DNA of 59,714 bases. It comes from Beijerinckiaceae bacterium. Lineage in GTDB: Bacteria > Pseudomonadota > Alphaproteobacteria > Rhizobiales > Beijerinckiaceae. Position 1 is the stretch's first letter. Each line of letters begins with the position of its first letter. Under the pieces are notes generated by a model that was not told where the DNA came from, searched no databases, and was given only the letters and a program-made list of their open reading frames with translations. Of the stretch, positions 20,868 through 50,146 are shown one piece after another. The DNA lies in NCBI GenBank assembly GCA_036758905.1, contig DAIOVR010000002.1, positions 1 to 59,714 on the forward strand, in the 5' to 3' direction. The position numbers and the translations under genes are program-made.

Positions 20868-20877
20868 ACCCGACGCA
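20868..20877 (-). promoter_or_regulatory. Conserved box TGCGTCGGGT, copy 1 (upstream of tail-fibre operon)
   Basis: Plus strand reads ACCCGACGCA. A degenerate second copy (TGCGTCGGCC) lies at 20829-20838. Confidence 0.5.
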
Positions 20878-20892
20878 GCGGTTAAGGTCTAG

Positions 20893-23800
20893 CTATTCGC
20901 CATTCCTAGCCCGCATTTTATCTTCCATTGCACCTTTGATAATGTCGTTTGGCCCCCCGACACTTTGAGCCGCAATCATATTTGCCGCAGCCGTCCGGCT
21001 GGATGAAATCGTTTTGGTGATGGTTTCCGCCCGGATATTCTTGGGGATTTGCTGCCAGCCCGGATTTTGAACCAAAGCGTTTAATCGCATTTTGGCTAAC
21101 CGGCCCGCCGTCTGGGCATATTGGTCATATTGCTCATCGGTCAAATCCTGCCCTCGGATTGACCGGCGCAATTTCCCAACCCCCAGACCCAAGGCGTTCA
21201 TTTCCTTAACCACCGAATCATTGGCATAACGATCCGCCGTGCCACTTTGCGGGATTGGTTCGCCAAACATATCTCGTTTGGGCAATAGGCCAATTGAGAC
21301 AAACGGCACCTTGGCCTTGGCGGCATCCAATAAGGTCCGCGCTTCGCGTTGATACGGATCGACCGCGTGAGCCACTTGACTCATGCCAACGCTAAACGGC
21401 ATCCAATTGATGACCATCCCTCGAATATAGCTTTCGCCATATTCTTCCGGATGAAACACCGCATTCAGCATGTCAGACAATCCTTTCATAAAGGTTTCAT
21501 CCAACACCGCTTTATTAAACCCTTCAAACGCCGCTTTGGCTAAAACCGTGCCATCTTCACCATCCCAGCCATGCGCGGCTTCGGTCATATTGGCCCCAAA
21601 CCGCATAAGCATGGCAAACGGCCCCAGACGGTCATAGGCCACCGACACATCGCCAATGGTAATGTGATTGGGTTTATTGGCCATCAGCCACACACGGCGC
21701 TCATTGGGATCAGCAGGGCCATCCCCGGTCATCAACCCATTTAAGGTCATCATGACGGATGTACCGATTAAAGCCGTGCCGGTGGCGATTTTGCCAAATT
21801 GCATGTCTTGAGCAGACCCGCCGTTTTGCCCGGACAAATTGCCGCGCACGTCCCTATCCAATAAGCCAATGGGCGAGCGTTCAATAAATGCTTCGCGGGT
21901 TATTTGGGTGCCAATTTTCATAAACGGCACAATGATTTTTGCCGCTAGGTTTGAATTGGCCGCAGCTGTTAATTTCCCTGAAAACGAATTGTAATCCGCA
22001 GGCGCCATGAATAATTCTTTCATGGCATCCGCACTTGCAGCAATCATCATTTCCGGTGTCGGCTTTTGAGTTAATTCCGCAACCCGTCCTTTGAACGCAT
22101 CCCCGGTCAAACCATCATTCATGGCTTCCCGATAGGCCAAAGATTGAATGTTTTGCTCATATCGCAGGGATTTAAAAAACGAGTGAATGGCCGCAACCGA
22201 TTTGGACGGCACATTGATAATTTCGCCAACCTTGCCCGGAATGGCCCGCGTGTTCATATCGGTAAAATGACCAGATACCTTTTCCCCAGGCAATGCAGGG
22301 GAAATGCCGGTTTTAAACGCTTGCGTTGCCGCCATTAAGCCATCGGATGATCCCTTCATCATGCCGTATAATTGCGCGCCCGCCTCACCTAAATAAACTC
22401 GATTTTTGACCTCATAGCCCAAAGCCTCGCGCGCCGCGCCGACCGCAGACGCCACCGGAATTTCGATCAAAGGACGCGCCAAGGCATTTAACGCATTGCC
22501 CACCGAATACCGGGCATGGGTTATCGGCCCCGAAATCAAAGCATTAACGTAATATTCCAATATGGCGTTTTTGATCGACCCACGGGCGGAATCATTAACA
22601 AACTTGGCCACTTGTCCCGGCGTTTGCAGGTTCATCCCAAATTGCGCTTCTTGCCTTAGTTGTTCCGGTGTCCGGCCAATGGTGCTTTGGAAGAATTGCG
22701 CCAACGCTTCGGCATCCGCCGACCCTTCCAGCTTACGGAATGCTCCCAACGCCCGGCCAGCTTCCGCCGTAATCCCCGCCACTTGCTCTTGAATCATCAA
22801 GTGACGTTGCCGCGCTTTGGCATAGGCCATCACATCGGCATCCGATCCATTGGCCGCTTTTGCCATCAAATCACGCACTTCCGTCGCAGATTGAATTAAC
22901 AGCTTTCGAGCCGCAAGGATTTGTTCGGCGTTGAACGCTTCCCCGATCCGGCGCCAATTGAGTTTTGCCGCATTCATGCCCAAAGCATCGGCCAGGTCCA
23001 ATTGTTCCCCGGCAGAAATCACGCCCCGCCGTGCGGCCATGAAATCTTCATTATCCGCCGCCGTTTGACGCAAAACTTCTTTTACATCTTCCGGTGTATT
23101 GAGATTATCTAACCGGATATTCCCGGCCTTATCTACAAGGTCTGATTCATCGGTTGCGAACCGCTCATTGGGTCCGGCTGGGTATTCTGTCTTGCTCCCA
23201 TTAGACCTAGTGCTGCGTCCGCGTGATCCGCTGCTTTCTTGAACATCGACCGCACCTCCTCCGGCAGGTCCTGATTGCCCGCCATCATCCGCGCTCTTGA
23301 TCGGCCCTCTAGCAGATTCTTCCGCCCGGTATTCATTTTCCAAATCCTCCTCGGTGCGCGGATTGTCGTAATCCGGCACGTTATCACCTTCCCAAGCATC
23401 GCCTTTGGCTTCTAAATGAGACTTGGCCCATTCTTCCGCGTGGCGCAATTCGCGCTCAAAATCCGCTTCCTGAGAATGAATTTCCTTTAATTGTTCTTCG
23501 GTTGACATGCGGCTGGCAACTTCATTCCAGAACTCGCTATGCGACATGCCGTCCGCTTTAATGCCCAATTCCCCGGCAATTCGATCCACTTCGGAATTGT
23601 GGTTTAAAGCATCCTGATAGGCTTTAACCTTGTCATAATCAAAATCGGAGAATTGATGGTCCCCGTTTACGTCACGGGTTAGCTTTTCCAAAAATTGATT
23701 AATCGTGGGACGTTCACCGCCCAATTCAGGGAAAAACCCGGCTTCTTCCGCCGCTTGCGCCACCCGGTCAATATCTTTGCCCGTTTTGCGCAGCACCCCG

Positions 23801-26373
23801 CCATTACGCTTGCCACCAAACAATGCCGCAATATCGCCCCGATCATTGCCAATTCCGCCATAAGATCGAACAAAATCGGTTAGCGTCGAAGGGCGCGCAG
23901 GAACCTTGGAATAAAGCTTTTGCTTTGAACTAGGGCCAAATTTTAGGTTTGACTCTTGTGGTGGTCCAATGCCTTCAACCTTAGCTTGACCTCCGCCCGC
24001 GCCGACCGTTCCAGATTTTTGTATAGCGCCATTTGTTCCGGTGTCAGGTCCGGACGCATTGACGCCACTGTCAGCACCTTCACTTCGTGCCGGGCTTTCG
24101 CCAGGTCCGTTTCCAATTCTTCCAGGCTGTAATTCATCCGAAATCTCCGAAGCATGTTCATCAGCTACCGCGTGACGCTCATCACGCACCCTATCGCCAA
24201 CGACCTTTGCTTGGTTCCCCGGCGTGTGTTCCGCATCGCCTTCATGCAGCGTTGCAAAATCAGCCCCCAAAGCACGATCCGGCGCTATTGTAACCTTTTC
24301 CGGGTTGGTTGACAAAAGCCTATCGAACACGTCCCGAATATCGTCATTGATAGGCGATTTCAGCCGGGTCACGGTTTCATAAATCTTGGTCAGCCATTGT
24401 TTAAATTGATCAAACACCCGCGCTAGGGTTTGGCTTGGCGCGCGGCCTTCCATCAAATAACGTTCAAACCCGCGCGCAAACTTTTCATGCGCCCGCGTCG
24501 GTATGGCCTCATCCTCGCTAACCCCAAGCCATTTACGCACCGTTGCAGCATCCGCCTTAATTTGATCCGGTGCAGCCTCATGAACGGCATCGGCCATCAT
24601 TTCTTCTAGAAACTTATGGCCGGTTTCATGGATAAAAGTTGACGCATCGGCGCCCTTGAACAGTTTGATAATTGTCTTATTTTCCCGGAATTGAACAGAA
24701 CCCCGCTTGGCTTGCTCATATTCCTTGGCCGTGATTTCCGGCGCTTGATCCTTTTTTTGCGCCATTTCCCGCACACGTTCGCGCGCGGCTTGGATGACGG
24801 CCCCATCCCGGTTAAACAATTCCAACGGCGATCCCAGCTTGCCGCCCATGCGCGCCGCCCGTGTTTCATACCTTGCCGCGATTAATTGAGCAGCGGCTTC
24901 CGCTTCATCCCTTGGCCGTCCGGCATCTTCCAATTGACGCGCGACCCTAGAGGCAATTTGCGCCTTTTGTTGTTCAATCGGCAATTCTGTTTTGGCCGGT
25001 GTCTCGTCAGGCTTTACACCCTCCGCCGCAGGTTCACCCGGTTTAGTCTCGACCGGCTTGGCCGTTTCAGTGACCGTTTCATTTTTCGGTTGCGCAGTTT
25101 CCGTTTCACCTTGCTCCCGGCCCTGAACGCGCGCCTCATCAACGGCTTGCTCGACTTCCGGTGCGGCTTCTTGCGGCATACGCTCTTGCGCTTCCCGATA
25201 TGCTTTTGTCACATCCGGCGCTAAATCGCGCATTTTATAATCATTTTCTTGCAGCACGCGGCGGATGCGCGCCATGTCCGGCGAATCCAGCTTGGCCGTG
25301 CTTTCAATTTCGTCCAATTGATCCCGCAAATCAGATAACCGGCCCGCTTGACGTTTGGTCAAACGATCTTCGACACCATTAACCTTGGCTAAAATATCGT
25401 CAATTTCGCTATTGATTGATTTTACATCTTCCCGGTTAGCGTGTGCTTCATCGCGCGTTTCCGACAGCTCATTGAGCCATTTGCGATAGGTATCGCGCCG
25501 CGCCACCAAAGCATCGTATTTTTCAAACGTATCGGGATCAATTTGACGCGCAATAGAATGAATATCCGGCTGTGCTTCTTGCGTTGTGGCTTGAACCGGC
25601 GTTGCCTCCGGTGTCGCTTGAGCCTCCGCCCCAGCCGCCCCTTGTTCGGCAAGCTGATCTTCTAACGGTTTGACACTGGATTTTAAATCATCCGCCAATG
25701 CACCATCGGCCAATGGTTCAGGTTCTTTCAGTCCAAAATAAACCGCGTCATCCCCGCCAATGACTTTGTTCTTAATGGCATCATTCCAAAACTTTGCCGG
25801 TGCCGGATGAAACTTTGACCCAAATGGAAAGCCCATGGCTTCCATGTCCATAATGCCCGTTACGTCCCGTCCCAGCTTATTCAAGCCAAACACGCCACCC
25901 GTTGCATTATTGGCTTCTTCACCCGCCTGAACGATACCCGCTTGGACGCCGCTATACCCCGCCGCACCTACTCTTAAAGCTGCATTTGCCGCCATGACCG
26001 CAGGGCGCATGAACGTATCATTAAACCCACCCATGAAACTGGGTTTTTTGGGATCGTTAAACCAACCCAGTTTTTTAAAGAAATCTTCGCTTTCCGGAGA
26101 CAACGCCATTCCTTCCCAGCCGGTTTTTACGCCGCCCACAAAAGCATCAGTAATCCTGCCTTCCGGTGTCCCCTTGAACCATTGATTAAATTGGTCAGAC
26201 GTATTGGCTAAAGGCTGAATAGGCGGCACTTTTGGCAGACGCGCATCAACACCCGGATAAAATGGCCCAGGTTGAGCAGGCGCATGCTGATCCAGCAATG
26301 AATCAACGTCCATTGACTGATTCGGCGCATGCGCATCCAATAAATCATCGACAGATGACGGCTGATCGGTCAT
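20893..26373 (-). CDS. Giant internal virion / ejection protein (gp16-like position; polyvalent-protein-like)
   Basis: 1826 aa, last of the internal-protein series before the fibres. Contains STFIHETGHKF (HExxH at 24616-24630). Confidence 0.65.
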   Translation of the reverse strand: MTDQPSSVDDLLDAHAPNQSMDVDSLLDQHAPAQPGPFYPGVDARLPKVPPIQPLANTSDQFNQWFKGTPEGRITDAFVGGVKTGWEGMALSPESEDFFKKLGWFNDPKKPSFMGGFNDTFMRPAVMAANAALRVGAAGYSGVQAGIVQAGEEANNATGGVFGLNKLGRDVTGIMDMEAMGFPFGSKFHPAPAKFWNDAIKNKVIGGDDAVYFGLKEPEPLADGALADDLKSSVKPLEDQLAEQGAAGAEAQATPEATPVQATTQEAQPDIHSIARQIDPDTFEKYDALVARRDTYRKWLNELSETRDEAHANREDVKSINSEIDDILAKVNGVEDRLTKRQAGRLSDLRDQLDEIESTAKLDSPDMARIRRVLQENDYKMRDLAPDVTKAYREAQERMPQEAAPEVEQAVDEARVQGREQGETETAQPKNETVTETAKPVETKPGEPAAEGVKPDETPAKTELPIEQQKAQIASRVARQLEDAGRPRDEAEAAAQLIAARYETRAARMGGKLGSPLELFNRDGAVIQAARERVREMAQKKDQAPEITAKEYEQAKRGSVQFRENKTIIKLFKGADASTFIHETGHKFLEEMMADAVHEAAPDQIKADAATVRKWLGVSEDEAIPTRAHEKFARGFERYLMEGRAPSQTLARVFDQFKQWLTKIYETVTRLKSPINDDIRDVFDRLLSTNPEKVTIAPDRALGADFATLHEGDAEHTPGNQAKVVGDRVRDERHAVADEHASEISDELQPGRIGNGPGESPARSEGADSGVNASGPDTGTNGAIQKSGTVGAGGGQAKVEGIGPPQESNLKFGPSSKQKLYSKVPARPSTLTDFVRSYGGIGNDRGDIAALFGGKRNGGVLRKTGKDIDRVAQAAEEAGFFPELGGERPTINQFLEKLTRDVNGDHQFSDFDYDKVKAYQDALNHNSEVDRIAGELGIKADGMSHSEFWNEVASRMSTEEQLKEIHSQEADFERELRHAEEWAKSHLEAKGDAWEGDNVPDYDNPRTEEDLENEYRAEESARGPIKSADDGGQSGPAGGGAVDVQESSGSRGRSTRSNGSKTEYPAGPNERFATDESDLVDKAGNIRLDNLNTPEDVKEVLRQTAADNEDFMAARRGVISAGEQLDLADALGMNAAKLNWRRIGEAFNAEQILAARKLLIQSATEVRDLMAKAANGSDADVMAYAKARQRHLMIQEQVAGITAEAGRALGAFRKLEGSADAEALAQFFQSTIGRTPEQLRQEAQFGMNLQTPGQVAKFVNDSARGSIKNAILEYYVNALISGPITHARYSVGNALNALARPLIEIPVASAVGAAREALGYEVKNRVYLGEAGAQLYGMMKGSSDGLMAATQAFKTGISPALPGEKVSGHFTDMNTRAIPGKVGEIINVPSKSVAAIHSFFKSLRYEQNIQSLAYREAMNDGLTGDAFKGRVAELTQKPTPEMMIAASADAMKELFMAPADYNSFSGKLTAAANSNLAAKIIVPFMKIGTQITREAFIERSPIGLLDRDVRGNLSGQNGGSAQDMQFGKIATGTALIGTSVMMTLNGLMTGDGPADPNERRVWLMANKPNHITIGDVSVAYDRLGPFAMLMRFGANMTEAAHGWDGEDGTVLAKAAFEGFNKAVLDETFMKGLSDMLNAVFHPEEYGESYIRGMVINWMPFSVGMSQVAHAVDPYQREARTLLDAAKAKVPFVSIGLLPKRDMFGEPIPQSGTADRYANDSVVKEMNALGLGVGKLRRSIRGQDLTDEQYDQYAQTAGRLAKMRLNALVQNPGWQQIPKNIRAETITKTISSSRTAAANMIAAQSVGGPNDIIKGAMEDKMRARNGE

Positions 26374-29251: not shown

Positions 29252-29704
29252 TTACCGCCTCAATTCAAATCGCCGAAACAAGGCCCGCTTTGGTCCAAAT
29301 TCAACGGGCGGACCAAGATCAAACCCCAGAATCAAAAGAAACCCACAGGCTTGCACGTAGGATGCCAGCACATAATTTTCCAATAAAGGAAACATTGCTT
29401 GCATCTTGGCCACTTCGCGCCGCCCTTCCCTTACAAAAGAAAATGGCACGCGCTCAATAGCCTCAGACGTTAAAAGCCATGGATAACCCACACCCGATAA
29501 GACCGATCCGCCAACCCCAAACATGCACGCAATGTCGCCATCAACAAATGCCGTGCGTCGAATAATGCTACCACGAAACGCCTTAAACAGCGCCCGATTG
29601 GGCGACATGCCCACGGACGTTAATTCTAATTTATCACCCCGACGCAGCTTATCTGCCAACATCGAAACGTGATTTAATTGCGCGGGAACAATTTGATACC
29701 TCAC
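29252..29704 (-). CDS. Internal virion protein A-like (T7 gp13/DUF2833-like)
   Basis: 150 aa. YPWLLTSEAIERVPFSFVREGRREV...LENYV...LILGF resembles the gp13-family pattern. Supported by synteny. Confidence 0.45.
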   Translation of the reverse strand: MRYQIVPAQLNHVSMLADKLRRGDKLELTSVGMSPNRALFKAFRGSIIRRTAFVDGDIACMFGVGGSVLSGVGYPWLLTSEAIERVPFSFVREGRREVAKMQAMFPLLENYVLASYVQACGFLLILGFDLGPPVEFGPKRALFRRFELRR

Positions 29705-33618: not shown

Positions 33619-33651
33619 GCGACAACCTCACCTTAACTTTGAACGTGGGGA

Positions 33652-34349: not shown

Positions 34350-34353
34350 CGTA

Positions 34354-38591: not shown

Positions 38592-38605
38592 AGCCTTAAC
38601 CACTA

Positions 38606-38615
38606 ACCCGACGCA
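38606..38615 (-). promoter_or_regulatory. Conserved box TGCGTCGGGT, copy 2 (upstream of head operon)
   Basis: Plus strand reads ACCCGACGCA. Sits 15 nt upstream of ATG 38591. Confidence 0.5.
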
Positions 38616-38632
38616 TAAGCGCAAATGTTCAA

Positions 38633-38683
38633 ATGGGTCACAGATGGGTGCTAAATGATGTAATGATGGGTGCTGATATGGGT
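38633..38683. repeat. Four direct ATGGGT(GCT) repeats in divergent control region
   Basis: ATGGGT at 38633, ATGGGTGCT at 38644 and 38666, ATGGGT at 38678. Spacings are 11, 22 and 12 nt. Confidence 0.6.
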
Positions 38684-38705
38684 AAAAAGCAGTCTTGAAA
38701 ATTGC

Positions 38706-38715
38706 TGCGTCGGGT
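38706..38715 (+). promoter_or_regulatory. Conserved box TGCGTCGGGT, copy 3 (upstream of RHH gene)
   Basis: The only plus-strand copy, oriented toward the plus-strand gene starting at 38755. Confidence 0.5.
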
Positions 38716-38754
38716 TATCATTAATTCATAAATCAACCATCATGAGGCCAAGGC

Positions 38755-38940
38755 ATGATGTCCACTAGCGCAGAGACAAACGCCCCCGTTGCGTACCCAT
38801 TGGTGCGCGTCAATTTATATATGGCTGAACACGTCATTAGGCTGATCGACAATGAAGCAATCCGCCGTGGTGTCAGCCGGTCAGAAATGATCCGGCGCGG
38901 GCTTGATCCGATGTTGGAAAAATTACGGGGTGCCAGGTGA
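38755..38940 (+). CDS. Ribbon-helix-helix (CopG/Arc-like) DNA-binding protein
   Basis: RVNLYMAEHVIRLIDNEAIRRGVSRSEMIRRGL (beta-strand plus two helices). Opposite strand to the surrounding virion genes. Confidence 0.65.
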   Translation: MMSTSAETNAPVAYPLVRVNLYMAEHVIRLIDNEAIRRGVSRSEMIRRGLDPMLEKLRGAR

Positions 38941-39068
38941 CAGACATTCAATTTGCAACACTTGTTGCTCTTATCGTGGCCATTGGTCCATTGTGGCTTT
39001 TGGGTATAATCCAATGGTCAATGTCTATTTATGACGAATATCATCGCCGCAGGGGATATTGGAAATAA
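38937..39068 (+). CDS. 43-aa hydrophobic peptide (single TM), coupled to RHH gene
   Basis: GTGA overlap with the RHH stop. FATLVALIVAIGPLWLLGIIQW followed by a basic tail HRRRGYWK. Confidence 0.4.
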   Translation: MTDIQFATLVALIVAIGPLWLLGIIQWSMSIYDEYHRRRGYWK

Positions 39069-39089
39069 TACCAATTGTGACACGCGCAA

Positions 39090-39254
39090 TCAGCGATGAT
39101 AATTTAATTTGACCGCTTGAGCATAAAGCAGATTAAACGCGCGATCAGACAATTCAATGCGCACCGGCTGACCATTTGATCCAACGCCGGTAATCAAATA
39201 TTGCTGGCCGTCATAACTTAAATTGGCTGTTTGAGCGGGCTTATAATCATCCAT
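39090..39254 (-). CDS. Hypothetical small protein
   Basis: ATG 39254 overlaps the upstream stop (ATGGATGA). The track ORF extends to 39371. Confidence 0.35.
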   Translation of the reverse strand: MDDYKPAQTANLSYDGQQYLITGVGSNGQPVRIELSDRAFNLLYAQAVKLNYHR

Positions 39255-39477
39255 GGGGCGCTTCCAACCATGAATCGGGGAAACCTTCTCTGATTTCCAT
39301 TGGCACAGGCCCGCTTGACGGTATCCGCCGCACATAACCGCTTGACGTGCATTTGTATGCCTCAAAGGCACAAGACGCCAACATTTGTTCGCGGCCCGTT
39401 GAATTTAGCTTTTTGCCGTTAATCCGGATAGATCGCACATAGTCAATTAATTCATTGGGCGTCTTAACCTGAATCAC
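39247..39477 (-). CDS. Hypothetical small protein
   Basis: ATGA overlap with the upstream gene. Confidence 0.4.
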   Translation of the reverse strand: MIQVKTPNELIDYVRSIRINGKKLNSTGREQMLASCAFEAYKCTSSGYVRRIPSSGPVPMEIREGFPDSWLEAPHG

Positions 39478-39782
39478 TTTAGCGCCTTTCTCATATCCGC
39501 AATGACCTCCGGATGGTCATTGATAAACTGCAATAGAAACGGGGATATTGCCCGAATAACCCGTTCCTCCTCTTTCATTGGCAATCCAACCATAGACGTG
39601 CGGAATATCGTGTGAAGTAATTCATGCAAGAATGTTTCAGCTCGCACTTGCTGTTCTAAATCTTGGTCAATCCTGATTGTGGATTTGTGATCCAGAAACA
39701 CGCCTTGGGTGTCATCGTAAAAATCATATAGCTCTACTTTGATTTTTCGATACCCAACGCGGATTTCTGTTGGAAGTTTCAT
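39474..39782 (-). CDS. Small HExxH protein (putative Zn-metallopeptidase-like)
   Basis: FLHELLHTIF motif. ATGA overlap with the phosphoesterase stop. Confidence 0.45.
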   Translation of the reverse strand: MKLPTEIRVGYRKIKVELYDFYDDTQGVFLDHKSTIRIDQDLEQQVRAETFLHELLHTIFRTSMVGLPMKEEERVIRAISPFLLQFINDHPEVIADMRKALK

Positions 39783-41146
39783 GCCGCCCACCGTACCCAA
39801 TCAGATTGATTAACCGTCACTTGATCTTCGAGATAGACCGGCACTTGGAATGTCACCCCGCGCTTAGGATGGGTCCACCAAAGAGCTTGAATAGGCGACT
39901 GATACCGCGCGCGCAGGAATAGCCGCGCATATTCGTCATAACCTTTCAACGTTCCGTTTACGATCACGCCGGGCAGCGGCAAGTATTGATGCCAATGCCC
40001 CATAATGACGGTATCGAAATCCCGGCCAATTTGAGATTCGGAACCGTGCAGCTTCACGGTCCCGCGCAGGATCGGCCCTAATGCGCCAATGATTCCATCG
40101 CCGCCCTTAACCCCCAGCGCATCACCATGGGTTAAAAGATACCGATGCCCCGCCACGCAATAATGGGCATCCGTTTCCCCAGGAATATAAAACCGTACCC
40201 GGTCATCGCCCGCAAACCGCTGTTCAAGCCACGTATAAAGCAGCCATTCATAAGACGTGTGAACCCGTTGCTTTGACCTTGGCTTTTTGCCCATACGCCC
40301 ATGATTGCCCACGACGCAAGGCACAAACACTTTGCCAAACCGCTCTGCCATGGTTTCAATGGCGCGAATCAATTGACCCATTAGCCAAACTAAAGTTGGC
40401 GCCGTCCGCATTTCATTGGTCTGGGTCAATTCATCGTGCAGGTCATCCCCGGAAATCATATCCCCGCCCAAATTGACTACAATACCGGGATATTCAGGGG
40501 ATGATAAGTGATGGATGCACAAATCAACAATGCGCTCGACCAGCGATTTTATGCGCCGTTCGGCAATTTCAAGATTGAATTCATTGACCCCCGCCACTTC
40601 AATCCGGTCAACCCGCTCGCCCACATGCCAATCTGACCACATCGTACTAGGTACGCCAGGCGCCCCCGCCACACTGGTTGAATTAACAACCCAATCAGGA
40701 ATAATGATCGGCAACCGGGACAGGTTGAATATTTCTTCCCTGATCCGTTCAGCGGATAGGCTTTCCCGGTGCGCCTCGGTCAATTGCTTTGTTAAAACAT
40801 CAATCCGGTCTTTGAACTTGATCCGCTCGCGTTCGGCAAGTGGCGTTTGATCAAGCGCAATGCTAACCGGCTCTCCCGATATTTGTTCAAATGTGCCATC
40901 CGATTTTAACCGGAATCGCGGCTTTTCATTGGCAGCTTTCGGTATCTCTGACGCAACCAGACCTCGTTTAAACCCGGCATTACACCGCGTTTCGAATGTC
41001 CCGCGCGGGATTCCCTTGTCTCCCGTGGGCTGCATTTGCTTATCAAGAACCGACGCAAATTGCGACGCCATCAAATGCGTTTTATGCCGGGCATATAAAT
41101 CCACAGCTTCTTGCAATGCCCATTGTGGAATTTTATGCCCGGCCAT
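39779..41146 (-). CDS. Calcineurin-like metallophosphoesterase with ~170-aa N-terminal extension
   Basis: The full motif set is present: SDWHVG, GGDMISGDD, VVGNHG, LLTHGD, IMGHWHQ. Confidence 0.75.
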   Translation of the reverse strand: MAGHKIPQWALQEAVDLYARHKTHLMASQFASVLDKQMQPTGDKGIPRGTFETRCNAGFKRGLVASEIPKAANEKPRFRLKSDGTFEQISGEPVSIALDQTPLAERERIKFKDRIDVLTKQLTEAHRESLSAERIREEIFNLSRLPIIIPDWVVNSTSVAGAPGVPSTMWSDWHVGERVDRIEVAGVNEFNLEIAERRIKSLVERIVDLCIHHLSSPEYPGIVVNLGGDMISGDDLHDELTQTNEMRTAPTLVWLMGQLIRAIETMAERFGKVFVPCVVGNHGRMGKKPRSKQRVHTSYEWLLYTWLEQRFAGDDRVRFYIPGETDAHYCVAGHRYLLTHGDALGVKGGDGIIGALGPILRGTVKLHGSESQIGRDFDTVIMGHWHQYLPLPGVIVNGTLKGYDEYARLFLRARYQSPIQALWWTHPKRGVTFQVPVYLEDQVTVNQSDWVRWAA

Positions 41147-41153
41147 GGTTCAC

Positions 41154-42839
41154 CTATGCCGCAACTTGAACTTTAACCGTCTCAGGCGGCAAATACCTTG
41201 CTCGCTCCTCATCGGTTAAGGTTGCAGGGTTTTTGCACGTGACTTCCAACGTCCCCAAATGAACCACTTGGAATGTCAAATCAACATCGCACCAGATTTG
41301 ATACCCAGCTTTGCGAACCTTGCGACAGAAATTCAAATCTTCCGAAAAATACAAAAATTCTTTGCCGTCATGGCCCAAAGTGTAATTCTCGTTGATCCAC
41401 TCCGCTAATGGCGTGCCATCCAAACTGTCCAAAACCTCTTGCGGCGGCACGTCCGTAAAATAATCTTTCAGCAAAGATTTGAACCCATCCAGCCGGGTTT
41501 CACCTTGCCAATGATAGGTTTCAAAATATGACGGCCATTGCGTCTTGCGGTACACATCACATTTGACCAGCAACAACCCGCCAGGCAGCAACAAAGCTTC
41601 CTGTAACCCGCCTTCCATAACCGATTGCGGGTTTTTAAAGGTCCCCAATGTTTCATAGGGCGGCACGCGCTTATTATAAGTCGCGCCCACAATGTCTTTC
41701 TTGTGGTTCAACAACCGAATAAGCGTATCCGGTGGAAACTTCATATCTGAATCCACCCACAGGATAAAATCGCATCCTGTATCCAAAGCTTTTTGAACCG
41801 TGGAGTTGCGGGAATGCGTAATCATCGAAGATTGAACATTGATAATGGCGGTATCAATCCCGGCCCGTGCCGAATAAGTCAGCAGCCCCGCCACATCAAC
41901 CGCCGTTCCCGCTTCCCATGTCCGGCCAGATGGAATAGCAATACCCACCCGCAACGGACGCGGGATGGATTTTTTAATCTCAGCAATGTGCTTTTCAGCC
42001 GCCGCTTTGATTTGCAAATACTTGTCAGATGGCGCGTGATCCATCTTGGCCGACACTTGCTTGATCAATTCCGGATTGCGCAGGTGCTTAATCTTTTCAT
42101 AGCAAAAGGCTTGGGCTTGCGGCAAACGTTCAAGCATGGCCCGGAACGCAGCCGTTTCTTTGCCGCCAAACGCCACTTCACCCAGAATAAACGCGTCTCG
42201 GCACCGAACAGGATGCGTTGCCTCAAAATAGCCAAGCCAAAATTCAAACTCAACCAAACCGTGAGTAAGCCCCTTGCCTTCGGGCATTAACACATCAAGA
42301 TCAACCTCGATCAATTGGCCAAACACCGTGGCGATTTCATCCCACCACGTATCGCCAAACCAATTTGGAAACCCATTGGGCATGAAATACCCAAGTGTCT
42401 CATAGACCTTGCGAGGAATGACCGGCAGAGACGGAAACCCCTGATGCCCCGCATCCCGCAGGTGCATGACCCCAATCCCATTGACCAGTCCCTTGGCCGC
42501 ATTAAAAATGCGATTGGGCCATTTGGCATCATCATCCAAAGTATAGTCATCGGCAAAAGCCATCAGATACTTACCTTGAGATTTTTCAGCCAAAGCATTG
42601 TAAACCGCTGCCAATGTCCCATGTCGCTCACCCAGCACGACGGACAATTGCCGACCGGGGATTTCAAGCGTGCCAAGCAATTCAACCGCTTCGGTATAAG
42701 TTGAATCGTCGTCGTCTAGTGCAATAAGCACTTCGACATTTGGCGGGATTTTGCGGTTAATCATCAAAGATGATACGGCGCGCAAAAGATTGCCGGGACG
42801 ACCCCGCGACGGGATCAGGACAGAAATTTCAATGGTCAT
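41154..42839 (-). CDS. Two-domain GT-A glycosyltransferase
   Basis: N-terminal domain ISVLIPSRGRP...VLIALDDDD. C-terminal domain VGIAIPSG...FILWVDSDMKFPPDTL (DxD). Confidence 0.7.
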   Translation of the reverse strand: MTIEISVLIPSRGRPGNLLRAVSSLMINRKIPPNVEVLIALDDDDSTYTEAVELLGTLEIPGRQLSVVLGERHGTLAAVYNALAEKSQGKYLMAFADDYTLDDDAKWPNRIFNAAKGLVNGIGVMHLRDAGHQGFPSLPVIPRKVYETLGYFMPNGFPNWFGDTWWDEIATVFGQLIEVDLDVLMPEGKGLTHGLVEFEFWLGYFEATHPVRCRDAFILGEVAFGGKETAAFRAMLERLPQAQAFCYEKIKHLRNPELIKQVSAKMDHAPSDKYLQIKAAAEKHIAEIKKSIPRPLRVGIAIPSGRTWEAGTAVDVAGLLTYSARAGIDTAIINVQSSMITHSRNSTVQKALDTGCDFILWVDSDMKFPPDTLIRLLNHKKDIVGATYNKRVPPYETLGTFKNPQSVMEGGLQEALLLPGGLLLVKCDVYRKTQWPSYFETYHWQGETRLDGFKSLLKDYFTDVPPQEVLDSLDGTPLAEWINENYTLGHDGKEFLYFSEDLNFCRKVRKAGYQIWCDVDLTFQVVHLGTLEVTCKNPATLTDEERARYLPPETVKVQVAA

Positions 42840-42852
42840 GCCAAAGCCCTTT

Positions 42853-43092
42853 TTAATTGCGATACGGAATAATCAAACCCGTCCCTTTGCGCATTAAGCG
42901 TTCTGTTTTTTCGCTCATTTCTTCATAGATGCCCGCCATAGCAAGCCAGTGCATTGACTTGCGCGAATGAGCCATGCCGCGCGCCAATGTGTGCAATTGC
43001 GCCAAATGATCCTTCATGCGCAGGAACAATTCGCGCTCGTTAATTTCAGAACCAATATGGTTCTGATATGCTTTCATCGTTGTTTCAGCCAT
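42853..43092 (-). CDS. Hypothetical small protein
   Basis: ORF track entry, co-oriented. Confidence 0.45.
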   Translation of the reverse strand: MAETTMKAYQNHIGSEINERELFLRMKDHLAQLHTLARGMAHSRKSMHWLAMAGIYEEMSEKTERLMRKGTGLIIPYRN

Positions 43093-43230
43093 GATTCAAT
43101 TCCCCTGTTAAATGTCGGCTTGCCATCCTTATCCGTTTCAAAGCCCCTAAAGCCGGGCGCCCGGACACGCAGGACAGCTTGGTATGCTCGGACAGCCGAC
43201 TTACCCGCCGGAAATGGCGCCCCACGAAAC

Positions 43231-43770
43231 TCAAGCAGACAACTCACGCAGCTTGGCCAGCCGCGCATTCAAATCACTCAGCTTGGCCGCAGCTTCGGCC
43301 TCGCGCGCCTCAATTTCAGCCTCGCGCTCATCCAATGCTTTATGCGCCGCCAATATCTGATCCCTGGCGGTTTCAATGTTTTCTTCGTGGTCCTCGACCG
43401 CCATTTGATGATCCGCCGCGACCTTGGCTGCTTGCGCATTGAAGGCTTCTTGCGCTGCATTCAAATCAGCCTCGCGCTGATTCAAATCATTCTCGCGCGC
43501 GTCTAGCGCCGTTTTGCGCTGATCCAAATGCGCCCGGATGCCTTCTTGAACATCCGACAATTGGTCAATTTCCACCTTGCGCTGATCCAAGGCTTTTTCC
43601 TTGGCCACCACGTCCGTTTGAGCCTCATTGACTTCGGCCAGTAAAGCCGTGTTTTGCTCAATGGCATCTTTCAACGTGGCAATGACCTGCCCCGTGGTCG
43701 CGGAATCAGACAAAAGCACAATCAGACCTTCAAGTGTGCCAAGCCCCTTTAAGGTGCTTTCCATTGGCAT
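43231..43770 (-). CDS. Coiled-coil protein
   Basis: Long heptad-like Ala/Glu/Gln/Asp-rich sequence. ATG 43770; the track ORF starts at 43788. Confidence 0.5.
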   Translation of the reverse strand: MPMESTLKGLGTLEGLIVLLSDSATTGQVIATLKDAIEQNTALLAEVNEAQTDVVAKEKALDQRKVEIDQLSDVQEGIRAHLDQRKTALDARENDLNQREADLNAAQEAFNAQAAKVAADHQMAVEDHEENIETARDQILAAHKALDEREAEIEAREAEAAAKLSDLNARLAKLRELSA

Positions 43771-43799
43771 GTTTAATCCACCAAACATTGTCCCGATCC

Positions 43800-44099
43800 T
43801 TATGTGTTAGAAATCACAGATACGGACGTTCCGCCGCCCGCTGGCACCGCAAAATATTCCGTTGAGTTTTGATACATCCGTGGAGACGTTGCCGCCGCAG
43901 CCACGTTGAAATCTACCGAGCAAGTGGCATCCGGATGCAGCCGCACCATGACCGTTTTGGGATTAAAGAACGCCGCGTAGGTCACGCCCGCCGTGATGGC
44001 CACCTTCTGCGTTGCCAAATACGGTTGATGACCAATCTGGCCAATCTGGTTTCCCACCATGCCCAATGACGAAAATTCAGTTACATAAAGATTGGCCAT
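43800..44099 (-). CDS. Hypothetical protein
   Basis: ORF track entry, co-oriented. Confidence 0.5.
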   Translation of the reverse strand: MANLYVTEFSSLGMVGNQIGQIGHQPYLATQKVAITAGVTYAAFFNPKTVMVRLHPDATCSVDFNVAAAATSPRMYQNSTEYFAVPAGGGTSVSVISNT

Positions 44100-44102
44100 G
44101 GC

Positions 44103-44264
44103 CTAACCCCCGCTCAATTTGGCAAAAATAACGCGCCAATGATTGGGCATCGGATCAGAACCAACCACCGCCCATCCGGCAGCACCATGCGCGTTTAATC
44201 GTTGAGCCAATTCTTCCGGTGTCATCCGTGGGAAATCGACCACGTTATACTCGTATGTGTTCAT
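44103..44264 (-). CDS. DUF4177-like small protein (53 aa)
   Basis: YEYNVVDF...ELAQRLNAHGAAGWAVVG pattern. ATGA overlap with the portal stop. Confidence 0.4.
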   Translation of the reverse strand: MNTYEYNVVDFPRMTPEELAQRLNAHGAAGWAVVGSDPMPNHWRVIFAKLSGG

Positions 44265-46359: not shown

Positions 46360-46395
46360 AGGTCAATCCTCACGGTTAAGTGAGGCAAAATCTAA

Positions 46396-46405
46396 ACCCG
46401 ACGCA
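46396..46405 (-). promoter_or_regulatory. Conserved box TGCGTCGGGT, copy 4 (upstream of portal operon)
   Basis: Plus strand reads ACCCGACGCA. GGGTGC-type repeats and the palindrome GGGTGCGAATTGCACCC (46424-46440) lie just upstream on the coding strand. Confidence 0.5.
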
Positions 46406-46483
46406 TGGTCATTTGTGTTCTATGGGTGCGAATTGCACCCTATATGCCCCACGATTGGGGGCGGCAAAGCGGATATTTGGGTG

Positions 46484-47245
46484 CTATCGCTTGCCCCATG
46501 CAGAGGCGAGAGGATTGTAATCAACTTCATGTTTGTTTGGTCGCAACCCAGCGCGCACGCGGTAATCGTCAACCGGACGAAATGCGGCAATGTCAATCCC
46601 GCTCATAATCCCATACCGCATGCAGTCCATTAAATGGTCATTTTCTTTGACCACTTGCCCCTTATCGTCCCGGCGATAAATGCGATACTCGCTTAACGTA
46701 TTTTGCAGCGTTTTAAATATTTTAAGCCGCCCCGTCGATAATCGCATCCAGGTCCGATATATGCCCGCTTCCCTCGCATTATTGGCCGTAATCAGCGTTA
46801 ATCCTAATTGTTGATATTCCCATAACAATTGCTCGCCATCCTTTTGTGCTCGACCGCGTGACGCCGGATCAATAACCCCCGGTATCCACTCTCCGCGCGC
46901 CTTAATGGCTTGAGCGTGAGTCGATGGTTCAGCCTGCCCGCGATAATGTTCAGAATAAGCGTAAACCACGTCCGATTCGGTATCATGCGCAAACCACAAT
47001 CCCGCCGTTCTATTCCATCCCACGTCCATGGCGTAAAAATGTTTCCAATGAGCGGGTATTTCGAACGGATCACAGGTCACGTCATCTTCCGGCACCGGAT
47101 AAATGGCGCCCGATCCAAGGGCCGGAATGCCTTTGGTGCGCGCGTCCCGTTCATGCGGAGCATAAGACTTAATCATTTCCGCTTGCGCTTCCGCTGATAT
47201 GTGCGGAACGTCTGCCCAGGAAACGAATGTAATGTATTTCGCCAT
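46484..47245 (-). CDS. terL: Terminase large subunit, C-terminal nuclease half (separate ORF)
   Basis: YAMDVGWNRTAG...IDPASRG...NDHLMDCMRYG (RNase H-like nuclease motifs). ATG 47245 lies 5 nt after the HNH stop; an alternative ATG is at 47278. Confidence 0.8.
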   Translation of the reverse strand: MAKYITFVSWADVPHISAEAQAEMIKSYAPHERDARTKGIPALGSGAIYPVPEDDVTCDPFEIPAHWKHFYAMDVGWNRTAGLWFAHDTESDVVYAYSEHYRGQAEPSTHAQAIKARGEWIPGVIDPASRGRAQKDGEQLLWEYQQLGLTLITANNAREAGIYRTWMRLSTGRLKIFKTLQNTLSEYRIYRRDDKGQVVKENDHLMDCMRYGIMSGIDIAAFRPVDDYRVRAGLRPNKHEVDYNPLASAWGKR

Positions 47246-47250
47246 TTCCG

Positions 47251-47775
47251 TTAGCCGTTTTGCAAAGCAACGGCCCAACGCTTGCCGCGAACAATGCGCC
47301 CAATTTGCGTTTGTTTTACCCCAAACATTTCACCTAATTGTCGTTGATAAAATTTGCCGCTTTTCCAAAGGCTTAATATCTTACGCACATCATCGACAGA
47401 CAAGACGGCGTTATGATGCCGCTCACCCATCAAACTTGTCCCATGCTTTCGCTTGTCCAAATGATTTGACGACCGAGTATCCCATCTTAGATTTGAATAA
47501 TGGTTATTCGATGGATCGCCGTCGATATGGCAAATTTCCGCCCCGTCAAACGGCTTTAACCCTATAAAAGCATACGCAACCAATTGATGAGCTTTTTTGT
47601 GGATCGACTTACCATCCTTACGCAAAATCACCATTGGATAGCCGTCAGATCGAATCCACATCTTCAATATTTTGCCAATGCGCGCGCCGGGAGCAGCCGT
47701 AACGCGACGAACAGCGCCCCATTCACTAACTTCATAATCCTCAAAACCAGGCACAATCCGCCATTCAGCAATCAT
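47251..47775 (-). CDS. HNH homing endonuclease (NUMOD4 + HNH_3 + C-terminal HTH)
   Basis: EWRIVPGFEDYEVSEWG..., HQLVAYAFIG...CHIDGDPSNNHYSNLRW, QRQLGEMFGVKQTQIGRIVRG. Confidence 0.85.
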   Translation of the reverse strand: MIAEWRIVPGFEDYEVSEWGAVRRVTAAPGARIGKILKMWIRSDGYPMVILRKDGKSIHKKAHQLVAYAFIGLKPFDGAEICHIDGDPSNNHYSNLRWDTRSSNHLDKRKHGTSLMGERHHNAVLSVDDVRKILSLWKSGKFYQRQLGEMFGVKQTQIGRIVRGKRWAVALQNG

Positions 47776-48545
47776 GACTTAACCTCCCCTTCCAAACGCG
47801 CACCACCCGGCATGAATGAAAGAACCACAGCCGAAAGGCCGCGCAGCGGCGTGAACCCGCATATCACCAACCCGGACGGTTGACCGGGCACGGTCGAAAG
47901 CGTTCGAGTTAAGCCTTCCGAGTAAATGTCCAATGGCGGTTCTTCATCAAATTGCATAATGTCGATTTTGGCCGCTTGGAACGATTCACGCCCCTGATCA
48001 TAGGATTTAAACAGCATCCGCGACACGCCGCCCGATAAATGCTTGACCGTCACGCTATCCACAGCATCCGGCACGCCCGGCCTTGGTGTCGCCTTGATGA
48101 TATTGTCAGCCGGTATTAAACCCGTGCCATGGTCCCCGGTTGGCCCCAAATACGTCACTTGCAAGGATTCGCGGACGGCCTTGGTATCTTCGCCCGCCGC
48201 CCACATGGTCACAGGGCGATCAAACTTGCGCCCAACCCACCAATGGGGATACCAACCAGTTAAATGAAGGGCGCACTCATACGAACACCCAAACGTCTTT
48301 CCCGATCGGTTGCCGCCGACCAAAGCCCGCTCTTGATACGTGGCCCCAGCCGCAAAATGGGCCAAATGCTTAGGGTATAATTCGCGCCGCAATGGCCCGG
48401 TATCAGGATAAGCCCGGTAAAGCAGCGTCTTGCGGTAAATGTCATGCTCTAATTCGATAATGGCCTTAAGGCGCGCATAATCATCCACCGGCAGCGCTGC
48501 CAATTGTTCTGGCGTCAGCGCCGCAACTTCATCGAACAAAGCCAC
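47772..48545 (-). CDS. terL: Terminase large subunit, N-terminal ATPase half (separate ORF)
   Basis: Walker A GGNRSGKT and Walker B IDIMQFDEEP. The stop overlaps the HNH ATG (ATGA). Confidence 0.85.
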   Translation of the reverse strand: MALFDEVAALTPEQLAALPVDDYARLKAIIELEHDIYRKTLLYRAYPDTGPLRRELYPKHLAHFAAGATYQERALVGGNRSGKTFGCSYECALHLTGWYPHWWVGRKFDRPVTMWAAGEDTKAVRESLQVTYLGPTGDHGTGLIPADNIIKATPRPGVPDAVDSVTVKHLSGGVSRMLFKSYDQGRESFQAAKIDIMQFDEEPPLDIYSEGLTRTLSTVPGQPSGLVICGFTPLRGLSAVVLSFMPGGARLEGEVKS

Positions 48546-48747
48546 ATTCGCCGCCTAACCGATGGTACAATGCTTTTACAGCCAGAAACGCCATAACCGG
48601 GCAATAGCCCGTTTCCCAATTCTGAACCGTGCGCGCGGTCACGTCTAATACCAAAGCCAATTCAGCACGCGATAGGCCCAATAATTCCCGATATTCAGCC
48701 AATCGAGCGGCAAAATTGACCTGTTTGGAAATATTTTCAGTAACCAC
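48529..48747 (-). CDS. XRE-type HTH protein between terS and terL
   Basis: LGLSRAELALVLDVTARTVQNWETG. Confidence 0.55.
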   Translation of the reverse strand: MVTENISKQVNFAARLAEYRELLGLSRAELALVLDVTARTVQNWETGYCPVMAFLAVKALYHRLGGECGFVR

Positions 48748-48782
48748 CGCGCAAACTCCTCATTTTTAAGAAATAATTTCCA

Positions 48783-49229
48783 TCAATGAACTTTTGACGG
48801 GGCAATCTCGCGCGCTTTCTTCATAATCATCATAGCATCGGCAACGCGCTCGTTTGGCGCCATTTCCTTAACGGTATGCTCAATCGACCCTTTGTGCTCA
48901 TGCTCGTGCTTTTGAACGAACAATTTGAGATACTCGCCCAGCTTTGCCCAAGCGGTCACACGCGCCCCGTGTGACGAACCTTCACCTGTACGCCGAGCCT
49001 CGGTCAAAAGCCCGTCCAGCACCAAATCTGCCGTGATTTCAGCCGTTTTTATTTGCTTTGACACCAATTGAGCCACAGCCGCCTTCACCTGAGCATTCCC
49101 TAGCAAGCGCGGACCATTAACCTCTGCGCTTTTAGCCGAGTACCCAGCCCGGATAGCCGCTTGTGTCGCGTTTAAATCCTTAACGTATTCAAGAACAAAG
49201 CGTTGTTGCTTGGGGTTCAGGTCGCTCAT
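48783..49229 (-). CDS. terS: Terminase small subunit (Terminase_2/P27 family)
   Basis: LNPKQQRFVLEYVKDLNATQAAIRAGYSAKSAEVNGPRLL. Confidence 0.85.
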   Translation of the reverse strand: MSDLNPKQQRFVLEYVKDLNATQAAIRAGYSAKSAEVNGPRLLGNAQVKAAVAQLVSKQIKTAEITADLVLDGLLTEARRTGEGSSHGARVTAWAKLGEYLKLFVQKHEHEHKGSIEHTVKEMAPNERVADAMMIMKKAREIAPSKVH

Positions 49230-49353
49230 GCGTTTATCTTGCCAAACAATGACTTAGCCAAACACTCGACAAAGATTGCAATGCTGATCCTATTAAAAAA
49301 ATCCAACATGACAGGCGGCATGAAAACTTGGCCTTGGTGTTCAAAAGCGCGAT

Positions 49354-49587
49354 TCATGGCGTTTGGCCTTTCAACAATGATTTGGCCAGTCTCTCCACCA
49401 TTTCCGCCGCAGCCACGCCGTGGAAATACGCTTTGTTCCGACTATAGCCCGGCATAAACCGCGAATTGTAACGCCGGGATTCGTATTCAAATTGAGCGCG
49501 CAGGGCTTTTGAATACATTTCAACAATGTGCGGAGGCAATAAAACGCCCGATTGGTCGGTTATGTCGCCAATTGCAATCATCGCCAC
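49354..49587 (-). CDS. Hypothetical small protein
   Basis: ORF track entry, co-oriented. Confidence 0.4.
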   Translation of the reverse strand: MAMIAIGDITDQSGVLLPPHIVEMYSKALRAQFEYESRRYNSRFMPGYSRNKAYFHGVAAAEMVERLAKSLLKGQTP

Positions 49588-49814
49588 ATTCCAAAAAACT
49601 CGCGGGATACAAACGCATCCATACCGTTTGGCCCCAGAATGTCGCTGCCCGTAACGGGTTCAACAGGCTTTGACGCCAATCCCGCCATTTCCAATATCGC
49701 ATCCACAAATTCTTCCGCCAGTATATCAGACGGAGCAGCGGGTAATTCAACCACTCGTCCGTTATACGAGATGGTCACCGGCCCAATTTGCGGCATGTAT
49801 TCCGGTTTGCTCAT
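49578..49814 (-). CDS. Hypothetical small protein
   Basis: ORF track entry. ATGA overlap with the upstream gene. Confidence 0.45.
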   Translation of the reverse strand: MSKPEYMPQIGPVTISYNGRVVELPAAPSDILAEEFVDAILEMAGLASKPVEPVTGSDILGPNGMDAFVSREFFGMWR

Positions 49815-50128
49815 TGGCCATCCATCAAATTAATGGCGGAAATAATCGTGCCAGTTAAAAAGCACAACCATCCAACGGCATAGAACATCAACGCTATCAT
49901 GGTCCGCCTCGCGCTTTTAATTTCCATCAATGACCGCAATTTCCAAGCCCAAACGCTCTCTTGAAAATTGATTTCAAAAAACAATCCAAGCATGCCCCCA
50001 AAAACAAATGGCACCCAAATCCGCCAGCCAGGCACATAACCGTTGACCACAGCCAGTATCGCGGGCGCAAAAAGCAAAAATTGCGCAAATCCAAATACTT
50101 TTAAAGCCGTTTGCCGTTTCATGGTCAT
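49811..50128 (-). CDS. Membrane protein (3 TM)
   Basis: Hydrophobic segments FAQFLLFAPAILAV, VPFVFGGMLGLFF and LMFYAVGWLCFLTGTII. Confidence 0.5.
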   Translation of the reverse strand: MTMKRQTALKVFGFAQFLLFAPAILAVVNGYVPGWRIWVPFVFGGMLGLFFEINFQESVWAWKLRSLMEIKSARRTMIALMFYAVGWLCFLTGTIISAINLMDGQ

Positions 50129-50136
50129 GTATTTTC

Positions 50137-50146
50137 ACCCGACGCA
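50137..50146 (-). promoter_or_regulatory. Conserved box TGCGTCGGGT, copy 5
   Basis: Plus strand reads ACCCGACGCA. Sits 9 nt upstream of ATG 50128, in the 43-nt gap after the GcrA-like gene. Confidence 0.5.

Follow-up and report, generated by a model that had tools for sequence, protein, structure and literature searches.

A conserved box ahead of the late gene blocks of an alphaproteobacterial podophage and a GcrA-family protein as its candidate reader

The window analysed here, the whole 59,714-nt stretch of contig DAIOVR010000002.1, is a temperate BPP-1/epsilon15-type podophage of an alphaproteobacterium, in which a conserved box with the consensus TGCGTCGGGTTwA (10-13 nt) stands ahead of each late gene block. 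The question raised by this locus is what the box does and which protein reads it. The boxes are predicted to be factor-dependent late promoters read by a phage-encoded GcrA-family protein that has been retargeted from methylated GANTC to GCGTC; judged on the sequences and on the analogy with Caulobacter GcrA, this reading has roughly even chances of being correct. No earlier description of the box was found in literature searches.

Placement of the box in the late region

The exact 10-mer TGCGTCGGGT was present in five copies (boxes 1 to 5, Table 1) compared with 0.14 expected from shuffled sequences, and all five were co-oriented with their downstream genes, four on the minus strand and one on the plus strand. 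These five copies had been listed in an original prediction, and their positions, strands and orientation were all confirmed, as was the existence of the three degenerate copies in Table 1. When one mismatch to TGCGTCGGGT was allowed, 13 sites were found against 4.2 expected, and the 8-mer TGCGTCGG occurred 10 times against 2.8 expected, with 10 of 10 copies co-oriented with local transcription and all of them within 13.8-50.2 kb. Conservation of the flanks reached 12-14 nt at several sites, and the distance from box to start codon varied from 8 to 67 nt.

Five copies alone are unremarkable, because 132 different 10-mers occur at least 4 times in this genome and 24 of them at least 5 times (unbiased count). 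Oligonucleotide usage is so strongly skewed that shuffle-based expectations for repeated words are invalid, and the earlier argument that a 10-mer expected about 0.1 times must be non-random overstated the rarity of the box. Other frequent 10-mers, for example CACCAATGGC (seven copies), TTGGCCGATG and GGAAATGGCG (six copies each), were located mostly in coding sequence and on both strands.

It is the placement of the box that sets it apart. Under a conservative longest-open reading frame (ORF) mask, 95.2% of the sequence was coding and 2,738 nt (4.8%) non-coding, and the JGI gene calls were used as an independent check on the gaps. No intergenic copy was observed for 114 of the 132 frequent 10-mers, the box was the only one concentrated in non-coding DNA, and the density of TGCGTCG showed an intergenic-to-coding ratio of 13. 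The claim that the box always lies in a non-coding gap held for four of the five copies under the mask, and holds for all five if the gene for p111 starts at ATG 38591, a start favoured by the length of its homologues in related phages (106-112 aa). Boxes 1 (L056 10561/10605) and 2 were also intergenic in the JGI gene calls, and the gap holding box 5 was placed by them at 20801-20892. These results indicate that in genomes with skewed k-mer usage regulatory motifs should be called by placement statistics, not by copy-number statistics.

It is highly improbable that the box has no regulatory role and is only a by-product of skewed usage or another polar signal of the Chi-like, packaging or replication kind. 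Such an origin would agree with the abundance of repeated 10-mers and with the three intragenic 8-mer copies (28233, 29637, 41048), whose number equals the chance expectation and which are probably not functional. It is opposed by the intergenic concentration that no other frequent k-mer shares, by the conserved flanks, by the fact that Chi-like signals also occur away from gene starts, and by the control phage MW202785, in which the same placement analysis yielded no outlier motif.

The degenerate copy at 13846, listed earlier as about 20 nt before ATG 13829, is real and starts 16 nt ahead of that ATG, but it falls within the 3' end of the endolysin gene, and the JGI gene calls leave a gap of 4 nt between the endolysin end and the next ATG. 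The last lysis genes may have an internal promoter here.

A GcrA-family protein beside box 1

The last gene of the leftward early operon encodes a protein of the GcrA family, and its position 26 nt ahead of box 1 may be compared with that of lambda Q before PR'. The protein is assigned to the family by the following matches. The Pfam model PF07750 was matched with 44.9 bits (cut-off 26.9, E = 2e-11) over residues 14-171, 753 relatives were found at E <= 1e-3 with a best identity of 41%, and Caulobacter GcrA (7ye1_G) was aligned across both domains with E = 8e-9. The domain order was an N-terminal helix-turn-helix (HTH) DNA-binding domain, a linker, and a C-terminal CCCH zinc-ribbon sigma70-interacting domain. 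An AlphaFold2 (AF2) model built from a 20-sequence alignment gave predicted local distance difference test (pLDDT) values of 95-97 for the DNA-binding domain, and its top three fold matches in the PDB were all GcrA (5yix_B at rank 2, root-mean-square deviation 2.5 A), while a single-sequence AF2 model gave generic HTH matches only.

GcrA is a monomeric sigma70 cofactor whose C-terminal zinc-ribbon binds sigma70 region 2, and its HTH element is a single asymmetric YGAKTCG located in the promoter spacer at -20 +/- 1 or -30 +/- 2, or at +5 to +30 (PMC9976885; PMC4647560). In the phage protein, the predicted contacts with sigma70 region 2 are kept: the C, C, C and H ligands are present, W120, Y142 and Y151 are identical, and the remaining substitutions are F130W and F132Y. 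The recognition helix TRNAVMGQLRRLGL aligns to T32-L45 of 7ye1_G and agrees with the family pattern T-R-N-x-x-x-G-x-x-x-R-L-G-L. The combination M/Q/R at positions 37, 39 and 41 was unique among 109 family representatives, in which position 37 is Ile in 75%, position 39 is Lys in 90% and position 41 is His in 65%.

To compare the helix with the box, the contacts seen in the crystal structure on the canonical TGATTCG (PMC5887438) were used. The bases +3T and +4G (read by R33), -7A (read by N34 and G38), and -8G and -9C (read by R42) are conserved in the box, and so are the residues that read them in the phage protein. The base +5A, the N6-methyladenine read by I37 at the floor of the methyl pocket, is C in the box and I37 is M in the phage protein; +6T, read by I37 and H41, is G in the box, and the protein carries I37M and H41R. 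The box differs at +5 and +6 only, and the changed residues I37M and H41R are exactly those touching the changed bases; the +6 guanine could plausibly be read by R41. At the backbone contact K39, the phage protein has Q.

Relative to YGAKTCG, the box core TGCGTCG matches at 6 of 7 positions, with C for A at +5, so that no methylated GANTC core is present and the box is a variant, not a canonical GcrA box. Canonical YGAKTCG occurred at 10 sites in the window, none of them in a late-region gap. The frame Y-G-N-K-T-C-G was found in 0.73% of the 10-mers of the window, and among the frequent ones only in the box and its overlapping shifts.

Promoter geometry and the proposed mechanism

The PcsM scaffold consists of GAATC, 5 nt and TATAAT. 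In the boxes, GCGTC is followed by GGGT or GGGTT (4-5 nt) and then by hexamers starting with TA (TATCAT, TAGATT, TATCAG, TAAAGA, TAGTGG), and the stretch of about 10 nt that follows every copy is A/T-rich. An ATG lies 15 nt past the box at 38606, and the second ATG past 50137 lies at the same distance. The early promoter TTGACGC-N12-CCTATAT (57736-57711, minus strand) was the only intergenic match in the window to the alphaproteobacterial consensus (TTGACGS-N10-14-GCTANAWC); it ends about 9 nt ahead of the Cro-like ATG 57700, which implies a near-leaderless cro mRNA. Because the spacing from box to ATG resembles that from the early promoter to Cro, near-leaderless transcripts are suggested for the boxes too, with GCGTC at about -19 to -23. 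No consensus sigma70 promoter (-35/-10 with 16-18 nt, or the alphaproteobacterial form) coincided with any box. Sites of the extracytoplasmic function (ECF) type (GAAC-N-CGTC) and sites for sigma32 (CCCCATnT), sigma54, CtrA, LexA and DnaA were compared by eye and rejected, as their spacing was wrong or inconsistent between sites.

Boxes 3 and 4 form a perfect 12-nt inverted repeat (TAACCCGACGCA / TGCGTCGGGTTA) whose arms lie 90 nt apart and face outward, and two outward boxes flanking a 90-bp control region are a promoter-like arrangement. Between them, the four ATGGGT repeats are helically phased, and GATGGGTGCT occurs twice, 22 nt apart. The sequence ACCCAT(t)WGAACA was observed upstream of boxes 2 and 3 only; at the head site it belongs to the phased four-copy array, and at the portal site it falls within the palindrome GGGTGC-N5-GCACCC. 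Its (C)ACCCAT part had been noted before ahead of the portal and head boxes, at 15-16 nt; its presence there stands, but the spacing is 16 nt at 46396 and 17 nt at 38606, and the bipartite element proposed from it is not general, being found at 2 of 7 sites. CACCCAT was not over-represented genome-wide (11 observed, 11.1 expected). ACCCAT is probably a separate operator bound by the ribbon-helix-helix (RHH) protein encoded downstream of box 4, which is a candidate repressor or modulator at these repeats. Related phages keep a divergent gap ahead of the head genes, past a variable cargo region, and in L103 an RHH gene is located there.

In the proposed mechanism, the GcrA-like protein would bind region 2 of the host sigma70 via its C-terminal zinc-ribbon domain, by analogy with Caulobacter GcrA, and its N-terminal HTH domain, as a monomer, would scan for TGCGTCG(GGTTwA) instead of methylated YGAKTCG. 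Within the promoter, the element would occupy the spacer: GCGTC would be centred near -20, a weak A/T-rich -10 would follow directly, and no usable -35 would be present. Bound in this way, the protein would load RNA polymerase at between five and seven positions. Box 1 (50137) would open the late region, box 2 (46396) would serve the portal block, box 3 (38606) the head-to-virion block and box 4 (38706) the RHH gene; box 5 (20868) and its neighbour at 20829 would serve the tail-fibre/lysis block, and the copy at 13846 may serve the last lysis genes. The RHH protein, expressed from box 4, would probably bind the ACCCAT repeats and modulate the head and portal promoters by feedback.

The earlier suggestion of a host polymerase assisted by a phage factor is the best fit to the evidence, and the GcrA-like protein, which had been named last among the candidates, is the best-supported reader. 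The earlier statement that the phage has no RNA polymerase gene was upheld in all ORFs scanned, and no sigma, Q, N or NusG/RfaH-like domain was detected in them either, although novel small proteins may escape such detection.

The other earlier option, that the box acts at the RNA level, was weakened. In this case the box would work during or after transcription, either as an ops- or qut-like site where a processive antiterminator loads onto the non-template strand or as an unstructured RNA site 5' of the ribosome-binding site (for processing or translational control), on one long late transcript. The strict co-orientation, the fact that every block of a 37-kb unidirectional cluster is headed by a box and the lack of a canonical promoter at the boxes would all be expected under it; GcrA elements themselves can sit at +5 to +30, and in MW202785, with a related layout, the late genes are preceded by an RfaH-like gene. 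It is nevertheless rather improbable, as the window yielded no protein resembling NusG/RfaH, Q or N and the distance to the start codon is variable. No match in Rfam was found, the RNA folds around six sites had no common form (z-scores 0.2, 0.4, 0.3, -2.9, -0.6 and -0.9, close to zero at all but the hairpin-rich 46396 region), nut- or put-like hairpins were absent, and no clear or strong terminators were observed ahead of the boxes or between the blocks. In addition, box 4 on the plus strand (38706) and box 3, its mirror image at a distance of 90 nt, face outward and need promoters of their own, and no other promoter-like sequence is present there.

A hairpin was observed past box 2 (46360-46395), where TAGATT is followed by CCTCAC-ttaacc-GTGAGG, which hides the only Shine-Dalgarno-like GAGG, 8 nt ahead of the TTG start of a 78-aa gene (121-nt region, z = -2.85). 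Translational control at this hairpin is possible.

A methylation switch can be added to the GcrA reading as a distinctly improbable extension. The phage C5-methyltransferase would mark the cytosine that stands in G-C-G-T-C (complement GACGC, an HgaI-type site) in place of the canonical N6-methyladenine, the GcrA protein, its methyl pocket remodelled by I37M, would read the 5-methyl group, and the late genes would fire only on replicated, marked phage DNA. In this equally doubtful case the protein would be a 5-methylcytosine-reading sigma70 cofactor orthogonal to host CcrM/GcrA, and only here would the methyltransferase belong to the feature.

Relatives, known systems and the surrounding genome

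A megablast search against the GenBank phages found no close relative, and relatives were sought by portal scans of IMG/VR, the JGI metagenomes and a set of 5.8 billion proteins. The nearest ones had portal proteins 64-73% identical and a GC content of 61-65%, compared with 51% in the window phage (57-73% identity and 59-65% GC over L001-L109), and none of the candidate regulators of the window phage was found in them. The window phage is an offshoot of low GC content whose early and regulatory genes are entirely different. The original prediction had counted absence of the motif from related phages against the box; the motif is indeed absent, but this is uninformative, as the relatives are distant and without the candidate regulators. 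The k-mers common to the gaps of the relatives were rejected as chance or uncalled coding sequence. The pattern ACCCGACGCA-N70-100-TGCGTCGGGT had 0 matches in IMG/VR, and its 29 matches in GTDB genomes were about the number expected by chance and were discarded as a duplicated segment, assembly palindromes and coding sequence.

GcrA-family genes are common on IMG/VR viral contigs (330 matches). In GcrA-encoding viral loci, canonical YGAKTCG was not enriched between genes (intergenic density ratio 0.8), and a published scan of phages with the canonical motif was also negative (PMC9437464). Apparent private boxes in L187 and L208 proved to be coding sequence missed by the ORF mask. In the helices of L140-L219, R33, N34, G38 and R42 were fixed and residue 41 was highly variable (H, T, S, R, V, M, Q, D, Y, L, G, E), which hints that phage GcrA copies have diversified in DNA specificity.

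Several points weigh against the GcrA reading. The match between box and GcrA motif was made post hoc, after the GcrA literature had been consulted (p about 0.007), and the conserved element of 10-13 nt exceeds the 7-bp GcrA footprint by its GGGTTwA tail. The -10-like hexamers are weak, with A2 and T6 present together in 4 of 7 only, and the asymmetric element lies on the non-template strand here and on the template strand in PcsM. Relatives with portal identities of up to 73% have neither the box nor a GcrA-like gene, and the other contigs of the same phage are clonal (at least 99.8% identical). Among the best 80 of the 330 GcrA loci, together with MW202785, no canonical or private box marked intergenic DNA, so a box-driven late programme is not general among phage GcrA homologues. 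Finally, the action proposed so far for such homologues is on host genes (PMC3556154).

Some of these points favour a different reader, in which case the boxes would still be late-promoter or operator elements and the likeness to GcrA sites would be coincidental. The reader could then be the early HTH protein (56787-57236), the HTH protein between terS and terL (48529-48747), the DnaA-domain-IV-like protein (52098-52358), an unannotated small protein of the early region or a factor of the host. The phage encodes several HTH proteins that are uncharacterised, and the post hoc match, the excess length of the box and the lack of such boxes in other GcrA-carrying phages all agree with this alternative. 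DnaA-domain-IV-like and sigma-like activators (GafA, GafYZ) run the late genes of alphaproteobacterial gene transfer agents. On the other hand, HTH and RHH proteins are mostly dimers on palindromes or repeats, and the box is a single non-palindromic unit; the HTH72 and RHH genes are themselves downstream of boxes; and no alternative protein shows a residue-to-base concordance or is encoded beside box 1. A different reader is thus considered unlikely, and the GcrA-like protein is preferred.

Phage systems with a similar logic are known. P2 Ogr and Mu C are small phage activators, produced as the early programme closes, which act on four to six late promoters through one short element with a poor -35; Ogr is zinc-binding, and the sites of Ogr and C are dyads at about -55 and -43, used with contact to the alpha subunit of RNA polymerase or by dimers. 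In contrast, the present box is asymmetric and would directly adjoin the -10, with sigma70 region 2 as the proposed contact. In T4, MotA/AsiA (MotA box at -30) likewise supplies recognition in place of the -35 for a whole promoter class, whereas no AsiA or MotA homologue is present here, the box would be nearer to the -10, and the GcrA mechanism would do without remodelling of sigma region 4. Lambda Q with its Q-binding element and RfaH with ops resemble the present system in a regulator gene upstream of the first target and in an orientation-specific element near the -10 or in the early transcribed region; they are antiterminators with one site per operon and a pause signal, and no homologue was found in the window.

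To our knowledge, phage GcrA homologues have been known since 2012 without a demonstrated function or a known DNA target. One of the closest systems is Caulobacter crescentus GcrA with YGAKTCG, which shares the family, both domains, a single asymmetric element (in the phage predicted to lie in the spacer upstream of the -10), and the predicted contacts with sigma70 region 2 and with the bases at +3, +4, +7, +8 and +9. It differs in that the phage box is without GANTC (A to C at +5) and cannot carry a '+'-strand CcrM methyl mark for I37, in the changed residues 37, 39 and 41, in the 10-13 nt length of the element, and in that the phage-encoded protein would be aimed at its own late genes, not at host cell-cycle genes. 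GcrA-family genes on alphaproteobacterial phages were described for phiCbK gp222 and relatives, where host cell-cycle manipulation was proposed (PMC3556154), whereas a candidate cis element and regulon are offered here. In Brevundimonas subvibrioides, a prophage-like structural operon depends on the host GcrA (PMC7987155), which is alike in the GcrA dependence of phage structural genes and different in the use of the host protein and in its undefined cis element.

The pairing proposed here, of a GcrA paralogue, a 10-13 bp element and a regulon of all late units, is testable. If it is correct, a host sigma70 cofactor of cell-cycle methylation would have been recruited as a phage late-gene switch. 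The exchange of A for C at +5 and of T for G at +6, matched by I37M and H41R, would be a natural specificity swap from which the reading of bases and methyl groups by GcrA could be understood. It would also be the first defined target for phage GcrA homologues and could serve as an orthogonal activator/promoter pair for alphaproteobacterial synthetic biology.

Table 1. Boxes, repeats and regulatory genes in the window
Feature	Coordinates	Strand	Context
Box 1, gcTGCGTCGGGTgaaaat	50137..50146	-	26 nt past GcrA-like stop; heads late region; downstream p105, small genes, terS, HTH72, terL
Box 2, caTGCGTCGGGTttagatt	46396..46405	-	between terL C-terminal ORF and small gene + portal gene
Box 3, taTGCGTCGGGTtagtgg	38606..38615	-	14-nt gap to ATG 38591; Bbp19-like/protease/major-capsid operon
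Box 4, gcTGCGTCGGGTtatcat	38706..38715	+	divergent from box 3; 39 nt ahead of RHH ATG 38755
Box 5, gcTGCGTCGGGTtaaaga	20868..20877	-	92-nt gap between 1826-aa virion protein gene and tail-fibre genes
Degenerate copy, TGCGTCGGCC	20829..20838	-	39 nt downstream of box 5, shared gap
Degenerate copy, TGCGTCGGCT + ttatcag	13846..13855	-	last endolysin codons; 16 nt ahead of ATG 13829
Degenerate copy, TGCGTCGGGG	29637-29646		intragenic
Four ATGGGT(G/C) direct repeats	38633..38683		starts 38633, 38644, 38666, 38678; spacing 11, 22, 12 nt
GCACCCAT + palindrome GGGTGC-N5-GCACCC	46421..46440		16 nt upstream of box 2
GcrA-family gene, 186 aa	50172..50732	-	proposed box reader
RHH gene	38755..38940	+	Pfam RHH_1, 1.5e-6; downstream of box 4
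HTH72	48529-48747		HTH between terS and terL
C5-cytosine DNA methyltransferase	54793..55980	-	PF00145, phrog_363; M.HhaI-like catalytic core
Early HTH protein	56787-57236		
Cro-like gene	57452-57700	-	heads leftward early operon
CI-like repressor	57784-58446	+	heads rightward operon to recombination genes and integrase

The phage genome is complete at about 59.8 kb, and it is shown to be circular by contig L056, which bridges the junction of the window ends and spans both of them. The portal protein is 37% identical to that of BPP-1. After Cro, the leftward early operon encodes an HTH protein, a GapR-like protein, RusA, the C5-methyltransferase, a helicase, an N4/N6-methyltransferase, the DnaA-domain-IV-like protein, DUF1376 and small genes, ending with the GcrA-family gene; the late cluster runs leftward from 50128 to about 13000 through terS, split terL, portal, cargo, head, internal virion, tail fibre and lysis genes.

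The motif GANTC was depleted two-fold (96 observed, 188 +/- 12 expected) and YGAKTCG three-fold (10 observed, 33 +/- 6 expected), and GCGTC/GACGC was enriched (179 observed, 124 +/- 11 expected). An alphaproteobacterial host with CcrM is indicated by the GapR and GcrA genes, the GANTC depletion and the alphaproteobacterial early promoter. The GapR-like nucleoid protein (56408-56776; PF10073, 3e-30) and the 86-aa DnaA-domain-IV-like protein (PF08299) are further alphaproteobacterial chromosome-biology genes carried by this phage.

The large terminase was encoded by two ORFs across the phage family, Terminase_6N (about 257 aa) and Terminase_6C (about 253-267 aa), at 46484-48545 in the window, 1493-3057 in L103, 7311-8923 in L104 and 24453-26085 in MW202785. 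An HNH/NUMOD4 homing-endonuclease ORF (47251-47775) was present between the two halves in the window only.

Between the portal and head genes, a cargo region of about 5.6 kb (38625-44264) was observed, containing a conserved GT2-family glycosyltransferase (41154-42839), a 455-aa protein, an IrrE/ImmA-like metallopeptidase (39474-39800) and the convergent RHH gene. At the equivalent spot, the cargo of the relatives differs and includes methyltransferases and glycosyltransferases, and in L103 an Acb2/Tad1-like anti-CBASS (cyclic-oligonucleotide-based antiphage signalling system) protein, so that the structural module seems to hold a moron or anti-defence hotspot at this point.

At the window ends (1-50 and 59660-59714), 15-bp tandem repeats (GATCTCAGCGGTGCC-like) were found in a gene encoding a pentapeptide-repeat protein, and it is at these repeats that the assembly is broken.

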